NCBI RefSeq assembly: GCF_050320075.1 | Contig: NZ_CP190018.1 | Length of the DNA: 64,000 nt | Strand: one strand, 5' to 3' | From: Escherichia coli | Lineage (GTDB): Bacteria > Pseudomonadota > Gammaproteobacteria > Enterobacterales > Enterobacteriaceae | Part shown: piece after piece, positions 51,351-52,961 of the stretch | How the letters are laid out: every line of letters starts with the position of its first letter | Position numbering within the stretch: position 1 is the first letter of the stretch | The notes under the pieces: model-generated | What the model saw: only the letters and a program-made list of their open reading frames with translations | Database searches by the model: none | What the model was told of the DNA's origin: nothing | Program-made: the position numbers and the translations under genes

Positions 51351-52082
51351 ATGAAGATGTTGCGCGATCCGCTGTTCTGGCTCATTGCTCTGTTTGTGGC
51401 GCTGATTTTCTGGCTGCCTTACAGCCAGCCGCTGTTTGCTGCCTTGTTCCCACAACTGCCACGACCCGTTTATCAGCAAGAAAGTTTTGCTGCTCTGGCA
51501 CTGGCTCATTTCTGGCTGGTGGGAATTTCGAGTTTGTTTGCGGTGATCATTGGCACTGGTGCAGGAATTATTGTTACTCGCCCGTGGGGCGCGGAATTTC
51601 GCCCACTGGTGGAAACTATTGCCGCCGTTGGACAGACTTTTCCGCCCGTCGCGGTGCTGGCGATTGCCGTTCCGGTGATTGGGTTTGGTCTGCAACCCGC
51701 GATTATCGCCTTGATCCTTTATGGTGTGCTGCCCGTCCTGCAGGCAACACTTGCCGGGCTGGGAGCGATTGATGCCAGCGTGACAGAAGTTGCGAAAGGT
51801 ATGGGAATGAGCCGTGGTCAGCGACTGCGTAAGGTCGAGCTACCGCTGGCGGCTCCGGTGATTCTGGCGGGCGTGCGAACTTCGGTGATTATCAACATTG
51901 GTACGGCGACGATCGCCTCAACGGTAGGGGCCAGCACGCTGGGTACGCCGATCATCATCGGGCTTAGCGGATTTAATACCGCGTATGTGATCCAGGGGGC
52001 GTTACTGGTGGCACTGGCGGCGATCATTGCAGACCGCCTGTTTGAAAGGCTGGTGCAGGCGCTTAGCCAGCACGCAAAATAA
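51351..52082 (+). CDS. yehW: ABC transporter permease YehW
   Basis: 243-aa multi-TM ORF. Confidence 0.9.
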
Positions 52083-52170
52083 AGGTATAACCTGCGAGCA
52101 TGACGCCACCAATTCCGCCTAACGCCATAAACAGGAACAGGGCGATGACCCCAATTTTAGCTATGCGCAT
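52063..52170 (-). CDS. yohO: Small membrane protein YohO (35 aa)
   Basis: Reverse-strand [38 protein letters not shown]; 3' end overlaps yehW 3' end by 20 nt on the opposite strand. Confidence 0.8.
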
Positions 52171-52229
52171 AATGCACTCCTTATGTTAACGAAAGGATTG
52201 TACAGTAAAGCGCATTTGTTAACGAATCA

Positions 52230-52961
52230 TTAAATGCCGAGTGGGAAAATATCATGGCCTTGTTCCTGCCAACTGGTGAGTTGCTGCTGTTGGGCGGAGG
52301 TTCGATTTTCACCGCACCACACCAGCAATGTACGGCCTTCGAACAGTTCAGGGCGTAGTTGATTGAGCGAGTGGGCGAGGACATCAATGCGCCATCCTTG
52401 TTGACTGGCAATCCAGCCCTCCAGCCACAGACGGGTGGTATCATGAATATTCCAGCCAACCACCAACGCATCTTTACCCTGTTTTTTACGTGCCGAAGCC
52501 AGGCAAATGGCGATGTAGTTGATCAGTACGCCGTCGAGGATCGCCAGCAGCGCCTGGAGAGTCGGTTGTTGGCACTGAAGTCGTCGGCGCAGAGGAATAA
52601 ACAGATGTGTGGTGAGCGTCTGGGCGGGGTAATCCTGACCGCGCTCTTTGATCCACGTTCGCAGGCTATGCAGATTGCCGCTTTGCAGGTAAGTCAGTAA
52701 TGTTTCTTGCTGATCGCGCCAGCCGTTCTGCACATCAACATTTTCATTACTGAGCAGCATTTTAACTTTGCTGACCTGCACGCCGTTGTCGATCCAGCGT
52801 TTGATCTCGCGGATCCGGTCAATATCGGCATCGTTGAACAGCCGATGGCCGCCGTCTGTCCGTTGCGGTTTCAGCAATCCGTAACGCCTCTGCCACGCGC
52901 GTAACGTGACAGGGTTAATATCACAAAGCAACGCCACTTCACCAATTGTGTAAAGCGCCAT
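52230..52961 (-). CDS. mlrA: MerR-family regulator MlrA (YehV)
   Basis: 243-aa ORF MALYTIGEVALLCDINPVTLRAWQRRYGLLKPQRTDGGHRLF... Confidence 0.93.
   Translation of the reverse strand: MALYTIGEVALLCDINPVTLRAWQRRYGLLKPQRTDGGHRLFNDADIDRIREIKRWIDNGVQVSKVKMLLSNENVDVQNGWRDQQETLLTYLQSGNLHSLRTWIKERGQDYPAQTLTTHLFIPLRRRLQCQQPTLQALLAILDGVLINYIAICLASARKKQGKDALVVGWNIHDTTRLWLEGWIASQQGWRIDVLAHSLNQLRPELFEGRTLLVWCGENRTSAQQQQLTSWQEQGHDIFPLGI

Follow-up and report, generated by a model that had tools for sequence, protein, structure and literature searches.

We found that yehW, the terminal gene of the osmF-yehYXW transporter operon, and the small gene yohO meet in a convergent junction that has neither a spacer nor an intrinsic terminator, and we regard it as likely that this architecture is a by-product of the way the two genes abut and that the double-stranded RNA (dsRNA) formed there is incidental. 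In the window, by which we mean the whole stretch of 64,000 nt of Escherichia coli DNA that was analysed, yehW lies at 51351 to 52082 on the plus strand and encodes an ABC transporter permease of 243 aa (PF00528), and yohO lies at 52063 to 52170 on the minus strand and encodes a protein of 35 aa with a single hydrophobic helix. The original prediction had yohO, on the minus strand, overlapping the last 20 nt of the plus-strand yehW. This was confirmed by the open reading frame listing of the window, which places the tail-to-tail stretch shared by both strands at 52063 to 52082, and by RefSeq, where a 20-nt overlap is also annotated in an identical E. coli stretch (NZ_AP019189) and in K-12 MG1655 (yohO, 2215657-2215764; yehW, 2215745-2216476). 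The yohO-yehW region was recovered in 5423 of 5426 complete E. coli genomes, and the window differs from K-12 at 27 positions per 1701 nt compared, as befits an E. coli strain other than K-12. In the shared stretch, codon position 1 of yehW faces position 1 of yohO, position 2 faces position 3, and position 3 faces position 2, so that the yehW stop (TAA or TGA) faces Phe30-Ile31 of yohO (TTT/TTC-ATT). Both stop codons sit at the far ends of the overlap; hence, every mRNA encoding either full protein must cross all 20 nt.

The smaller partner is a genuine gene and not a chance open reading frame. Its product was detected by top-down mass spectrometry (PMC12529367) and matches the NCBIfam equivalog NF010225 over residues 1 to 35 of 35 with 80.1 bits (cutoff, 57); its relatives carry Pfam PF27791 in precomputed matches, and the family is that of the YohO/UPF0387 small membrane proteins. 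Like other members, which have 34 to 37 aa, it consists of one hydrophobic helix (mean hydropathy of 2.17 over residues 6 to 32) with a conserved core motif, which opens with MA(I/V)(G/S) and is nearly invariant; most positions are fixed across 78 loci. The entropy of the core by codon position 1/2/3 (0.21/0.04/1.07) follows the pattern of purifying selection, and a Shine-Dalgarno sequence, AAGGAG (52177 to 52182, minus strand), lies 6 nt 5' of the ATG in the window and in all 78 scored loci. A search of 1.84 billion representative proteins with YohO returned only 17 clusters, mostly of frameshifted variants, indicating that the family is narrow. Two published observations touch on the gene more loosely: in Shigella flexneri, yohO mRNA is about 8-fold lower (log2, −2.96) under anaerobiosis (PMC4229854), and a clone overexpressing yohO was retained after round one of a screen for candidates in alanine export (PMC10299036).

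To place the overlap in an evolutionary context, we used 80 species-level loci of Enterobacteriaceae collected with MlrA as the anchor. The order mlrA, yohO, and convergent yehW is present in all 80 of these MlrA-anchored loci. The overlap measures 20 nt in 34 of the 80 (Escherichia, Citrobacter, Salmonella, Buttiauxella, and Cedecea) and 26 nt in 40 (Enterobacter, Leclercia, Kosakonia, Lelliottia, and others, where YohO has 37 aa); four loci have 23 nt and a single one has 17 nt, and nine further loci with other upstream neighbors again show 20 or 26 nt. All of these lengths equal 2 modulo 3, and the relative frame of the two genes is therefore constant throughout. The neighbor on the other side is less stable. 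In the window, mlrA (52230 to 52961, minus strand) precedes yohO by 59 nt in the same orientation, and in divergent members of the yohO family its place is taken by metG, a gene for a helix-turn-helix (HTH) regulator, a gene for a TonB-dependent receptor, or a divergent btsS. As yohO keeps yehW while the other neighbor changes, we conclude that its link is with the end of osmF-yehYXW rather than with mlrA. Some irregular records were also encountered in this survey. The yohO start is disrupted in Citrobacter amalonaticus AUH_CA_2023_1 (locus L008, 3793-3900) and yehW is interrupted in Leclercia adecarboxylata NCTC13032 (L043), each representing either a pseudogene or an assembly error. A record labelled Chryseobacterium sp. 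18061 (L055) carries an enterobacterial mlrA-yohO-yehW locus; its YohO is identical to that of Citrobacter sp. 18056 (L054), with equal MlrA identity to the query, and the record is probably mislabelled or contaminated.

The substitution patterns in these loci indicate which of the two frames is constrained. In the part of yehW 5' of the overlap, the usual pattern holds, with fixed second codon positions and variable third ones. Within the overlap, position 2 of yehW, which faces position 3 of yohO, reaches an entropy of up to 1.6, and its positions 1 and 3 are almost invariant; the third-position variation of yohO is normal all through the overlap, and the yehW stop alternates between TAA and TGA together with the synonymous TTT and TTC codons of yohO Phe30. 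In the three YehW codons that directly precede the overlap, variation extends to every codon position. Conservation of YehW ends with the motif DR-x-FERL (here, DRLFERL) at about 52052, some 10 nt short of the yohO stop, and this point matches where the homologous domain ends in the OpuA structure. On these alignments, the last 6 to 8 residues of YehW are unconstrained, and the constrained parts of YehW and YohO abut without overlapping. Given that substitutions follow the yohO frame and that the YehW tail is free to vary, the coding overlap can be accounted for without regulation.

Sequence motifs upstream of yohO suggest that the gene has a promoter of its own. A −10 hexamer, TACAAT (52197 to 52202, minus strand), ends 26 nt ahead of the ATG. 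The corresponding hexamer is TATAAT in 53 of 78 loci, TACAAT in 16 (the window included), and TATACT in 8, and it ends 25 to 27 nt before the ATG in 74 of the 78 and 31 nt before it in 3, with none found in the remaining locus. It is kept where the upstream gene is metG, the HTH regulator, the TonB receptor, or divergent btsS and mlrA is absent, and it is presumably used by sigma-70. The data of Conway et al., as quoted in Table S1e of PMC7373196, define a yohO unit of 254 nt from a promoter at 2213660 to a terminator at 2213914 (U00096.2), which maps to 52189 through 51935 of the window; coordinates in U00096.2 were mapped with an offset of 1978 taken from the listed small interfering RNA (siRNA) sequences, and the E. 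coli start site is thus given here as this secondary citation of Conway et al. has it. The motif GTTAACA occurs twice on the minus strand on either side of the hexamer (52184 to 52190 and 52217 to 52223), the upstream copy 14 nt 5' of the hexamer and the downstream copy at the predicted start site. Of 78 loci, 59 have an upstream TTAACA at the same spacing, and about 90% of the aligned loci retain the downstream copy; the pair could be a binding site for a regulator. We also considered an MlrA box (TGTACA-N12-TGTACA, as quoted in PMC9662190) in the yohO promoter and rejected it, as the window holds 5 sites with three mismatches versus 2.1 expected, which is chance level. Between btsS and yohO, mlrA is missing in one of our loci (L091) and in Klebsiella pneumoniae MGH 78578 (tables of PMC3536570), and yohO is there divergent to btsS. 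The AT-rich block GCATTTAATG of E. coli includes the mlrA stop, and a similar block, AATTAATG, persists upstream of yohO in L091. Its retention without mlrA suggests that the block is probably part of the yohO promoter region.

Published 3' end mapping shows that yohO transcripts run into yehW. Term-seq places a 3' end of yohO mRNA at 52014 on the minus strand (MG1655 2215813), 49 nt past the yohO stop and 69 nt inside the yehW coding sequence (supplementary file 1 of PMC7815308); the source classes this end as "primary yohO, antisense yehW" and has three entries for it in a file that covers three growth conditions. A region of Rho termination lies at about 51832 on the same strand (MG1655 2215995), antisense to yehW (supplementary file 2 of PMC7815308). 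It is sensitive to bicyclomycin and lies about 180 nt beyond the Term-seq end. The 3' untranslated regions (UTRs) on both strands are C-rich and G-poor, and the yohO strand is C-rich at the Rho region. The Term-seq tables of PMC7815308 contain no 3' end for the osmF-yehYXW mRNA, and neither yohO nor yehW appears in the supplementary SMRT-Cappable-seq data. The original prediction named 3' end mapping as its check and termination of both transcripts before the overlap as the outcome that would speak against it; as full-length mRNAs necessarily span the overlap, that outcome cannot arise. In K. pneumoniae, a transcript of about 800 nt starts about 30 nt before a 37-aa open reading frame homologous to YohO and covers 92% of yehW; the genes upstream are on the other strand, with no mlrA (PMC3536570).

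A scan for intrinsic terminators on both strands at the junction recovered nothing beyond a weak hairpin of 6 bp that lies inside yohO and has a poor T run, the junction RNA folds no better than shuffled sequence, and, with no spacer present between yehW and yohO, no bidirectional intrinsic terminator is found there. The yohO 3' UTR contains a 7-bp hairpin, GGCGGUC-6 nt-GAUCGCC (52019 to 52038, minus strand), which has no U tract and lies 5 nt upstream of the mapped end. RNAalifold gave essentially no consensus structure over alignments of the overlap and the yohO 3' UTR. In the E. coli hairpin, 79% of the alignment cells pair, with a covariation score of 0.166 versus 0.135 in shuffles; conservation of the Asp-Arg and Ala-Ile codons of yehW could account for this signal. 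Neither the RNAalifold result nor this weak covariation supports a conserved RNA structure in the yohO 3' UTR. An inverted repeat at the yohO start (ATGCGC...GCGCAT) was examined as a possible terminator of mlrA or yehW and rejected, since it is not conserved in other genera and folds like shuffled sequence. Upstream, another Term-seq 3' end falls 38 nt within the mlrA open reading frame (MG1655 2214904; about 52923 in the window, minus strand), directly 3' of a terminator-like hairpin and T run (52957 to 52935, with the tail GCGTTGCTTT), and there may be premature termination near the mlrA start.

Evidence that both strands are transcribed comes from dsRNA captured with p19. The RNase III dsRNA cluster S-173, labelled "yehW yohO" and typed "Full," spans 51868 to 52159 of the window (U00096.2 2213690-2213981) on both strands, with 194 reads per million (RPM) in the sense and 174 RPM in the antisense orientation (PMC7373196). 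Reads on both strands mean that both are transcribed over about 290 bp. Its paired 21-nt duplexes could be located in the window, some beginning at the yohO stop codon, and the dsRNA signal at the locus is in roughly the top 5% of genes. The cluster indicates that the osmF-yehYXW mRNA extends at least 76 nt past the yehW stop; the reach of this mRNA into yohO is read from the cluster together with an ambiguous row quoted from Conway et al. In the 2025 ExcludonFinder survey, yohO-yehW is among 165 convergent excludons, each present in half or more of the 58 RNA-seq samples from MG1655 (PMC12288877), and the locus has the corresponding structure, namely, neighbors on opposite strands with overlapping transcripts and dsRNA processed by RNase III. 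The expectation that the transcripts are mutually antisense at their ends is thus borne out by the published Term-seq data, the dsRNA cluster, and the excludon list, and the predicted 20 nt understates the transcript overlap, which is about 290 nt or more. Existing annotation and publications already cover the overlap itself, the antisense transcripts, the dsRNA, and the designation as an excludon.

Other promoter-like and transcriptional signals on the plus strand were noted in the vicinity. The sequence ATGACC-17 nt-CATAAT (52145 to 52173) lies inside the yohO start, and its CATAAT −10 is the reverse complement of the yohO start codon context. An antisense start that Huang et al. cite from Thomason et al. 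(minus strand, U00096.2 2213668) corresponds to about 52181 of the window, just downstream of this site, and a transcript from it would run antisense into mlrA. Duplexes from p19 capture are listed within mlrA, too (PMC7373196).

The account that we prefer brings these data together as follows. yohO would be an independent small gene with its own conserved promoter and a start near 52189. Because there is no intergenic terminator, its mRNA enters the antisense strand of yehW; this mRNA would be short, about 175 to 255 nt, and would extend 50 to 230 nt into yehW. Rho would halt transcription inside the yehW region, and the 3' end would then be trimmed back to the hairpin at 52014, presumably by an exonuclease. 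From the other side, the osmF-yehYXW mRNA, whose exact 3' end is extrapolated, would traverse most or all of yohO. Where both RNAs are present, they would pair and RNase III would cut the duplex. At the protein level, functional YehW would end at FERL, with its frame continuing through the 3' end of yohO to the first stop, and selection within the coding overlap acts on YohO only. Any effect of the transcript overlap on expression is probably modest, and the suggestion that the overlap couples the expression of the operon and yohO is a possibility only.

Several known systems resemble parts of this arrangement. Convergent excludons such as ydfV-relBE likewise involve neighbors on opposite strands, 3' transcript overlap, and dsRNA cut by RNase III, but at yohO-yehW the coding sequences overlap too and yohO is wholly covered, and the likeness is one of structure, the defining functional outcome of an excludon being reciprocal expression. 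The yohO end resembles those E. coli 3' ends that are terminated by Rho and trimmed to a stem-loop in its C-rich RNA, its hairpin that lacks a U tract, and the bicyclomycin-sensitive region downstream; it differs from them in that its trimming is deduced and its hairpin lacks convincing covariation. Some small membrane proteins are encoded beside transporter genes, as typified by KdpF, AcrZ, and MgtS. YohO is similarly a single helix of <50 aa and is invariably linked to a transporter operon, but yohO is transcribed from a promoter of its own on the opposite strand, and the likeness is one of gene arrangement and protein form. Short tail-to-tail gene overlaps occur in compact bacterial genomes, with 4-nt cases being common. 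As in those, the stop of each gene lies within the end of the other and one frame is constrained, but the overlap of yohO-yehW is longer (17 to 26 nt) and stable across the whole family.

The invariable arrangement and the strong dsRNA signal could also mean that the overlap is put to regulatory use. If the locus were a functional excludon, polymerase collision and RNase III cleavage would keep yohO and the 3' part of osmF-yehYXW from being expressed together, with yohO transcription during growth damping yehW and RpoS-dependent or osmotic induction of the operon damping yohO. This reading would suit the presence of the pair in the excludon list in ≥50% of the 58 samples, the formation of RNase III dsRNA, the retention of the arrangement in every locus examined (about 87 to 89), the calling of the Klebsiella yohO transcript in exponential phase only, with the operon segment called in both phases, and the standing of osmF as a core RpoS-dependent gene. 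However, inheritance and the cost of separating abutting genes can explain the conservation, the overlap varies freely in length and the YehW tail in sequence, and the overlap shows no RNAalifold structure and the E. coli hairpin only weak covariation. The literature searched contained no report of reciprocal yohO/yehW expression, and the available parts of the excludon paper, which reports 20 inversely regulated pairs, do not take up this one as an example. We therefore hold a functional excludon to be doubtful. As for the broader proposal that the junction is a working regulatory unit, in which antisense pairing and RNase III set the ratio of YohO to the RpoS-dependent betaine transporter and YohO might act on that transporter, we consider it quite unlikely. 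YohO might instead be an accessory or regulatory subunit of the OsmF-YehYXW transporter, the overlap then being secondary, which would be compatible with the other readings. The constancy of yehW beside yohO as the other neighbor varies (mlrA, metG, HTH regulator, TonB receptor, or btsS), a helix face that is rich in glycine and invariant (GGIGG), as is typical of packed helices, and the narrow, lineage-specific distribution of the family agree with such a role. Yet yohO has a separate promoter and the opposite orientation, and so is not co-expressed with the operon; the literature searched contained no report of a YohO interaction or of transport; and the overlap alone explains the linkage, as rearrangement cannot part overlapping genes undamaged. 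A partnership of this kind thus seems distinctly improbable.

Two further readings concern the transcripts themselves. yohO and mlrA share a strand, are 59 nt apart, and have no clear terminator between them, which makes some read-through from mlrA into yohO likely. It might accordingly be supposed that yohO is the tail of an mlrA-yohO transcript and that the antisense partner of yehW is the 3' end of mlrA mRNA, but the spacer holds the conserved −10 and a strong Shine-Dalgarno sequence, yohO and its promoter are kept where mlrA is absent, and the quoted data of Conway et al. give yohO a 254-nt unit to itself, rendering an mlrA-yohO operon very improbable as the explanation. The combination of a 35-aa hydrophobic peptide with antisense RNA that covers the whole gene and is an RNase III substrate is reminiscent of type I toxin-antitoxin pairs, in which a hydrophobic peptide is under the control of a dedicated antisense RNA. 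Here, however, the antisense partner is the operon mRNA and not a small RNA, the sole start mapped on that strand in the data as quoted (at about 52181) faces away from yohO, the gene is single copy and conserved, and a growth-based screen yielded a clone in which yohO was induced with IPTG. An Rfam scan gave only two subthreshold chance matches and hence no family assignment; together with the orientation of the start, this leaves the locus with no dedicated antisense RNA, and we rejected the pair as a type I toxin-antitoxin system, which we disfavor as extremely improbable.

For the convergent junction without spacer or terminator, this analysis adds to the published record that the overlap is frame-locked across the family, that selection within it acts on the YohO frame only, and that yohO is linked to yehW rather than to mlrA. 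These additions make the locus a compact test case for whether a natural terminator-less convergent junction has any regulatory effect, and they bear also on the role of the uncharacterised YohO.
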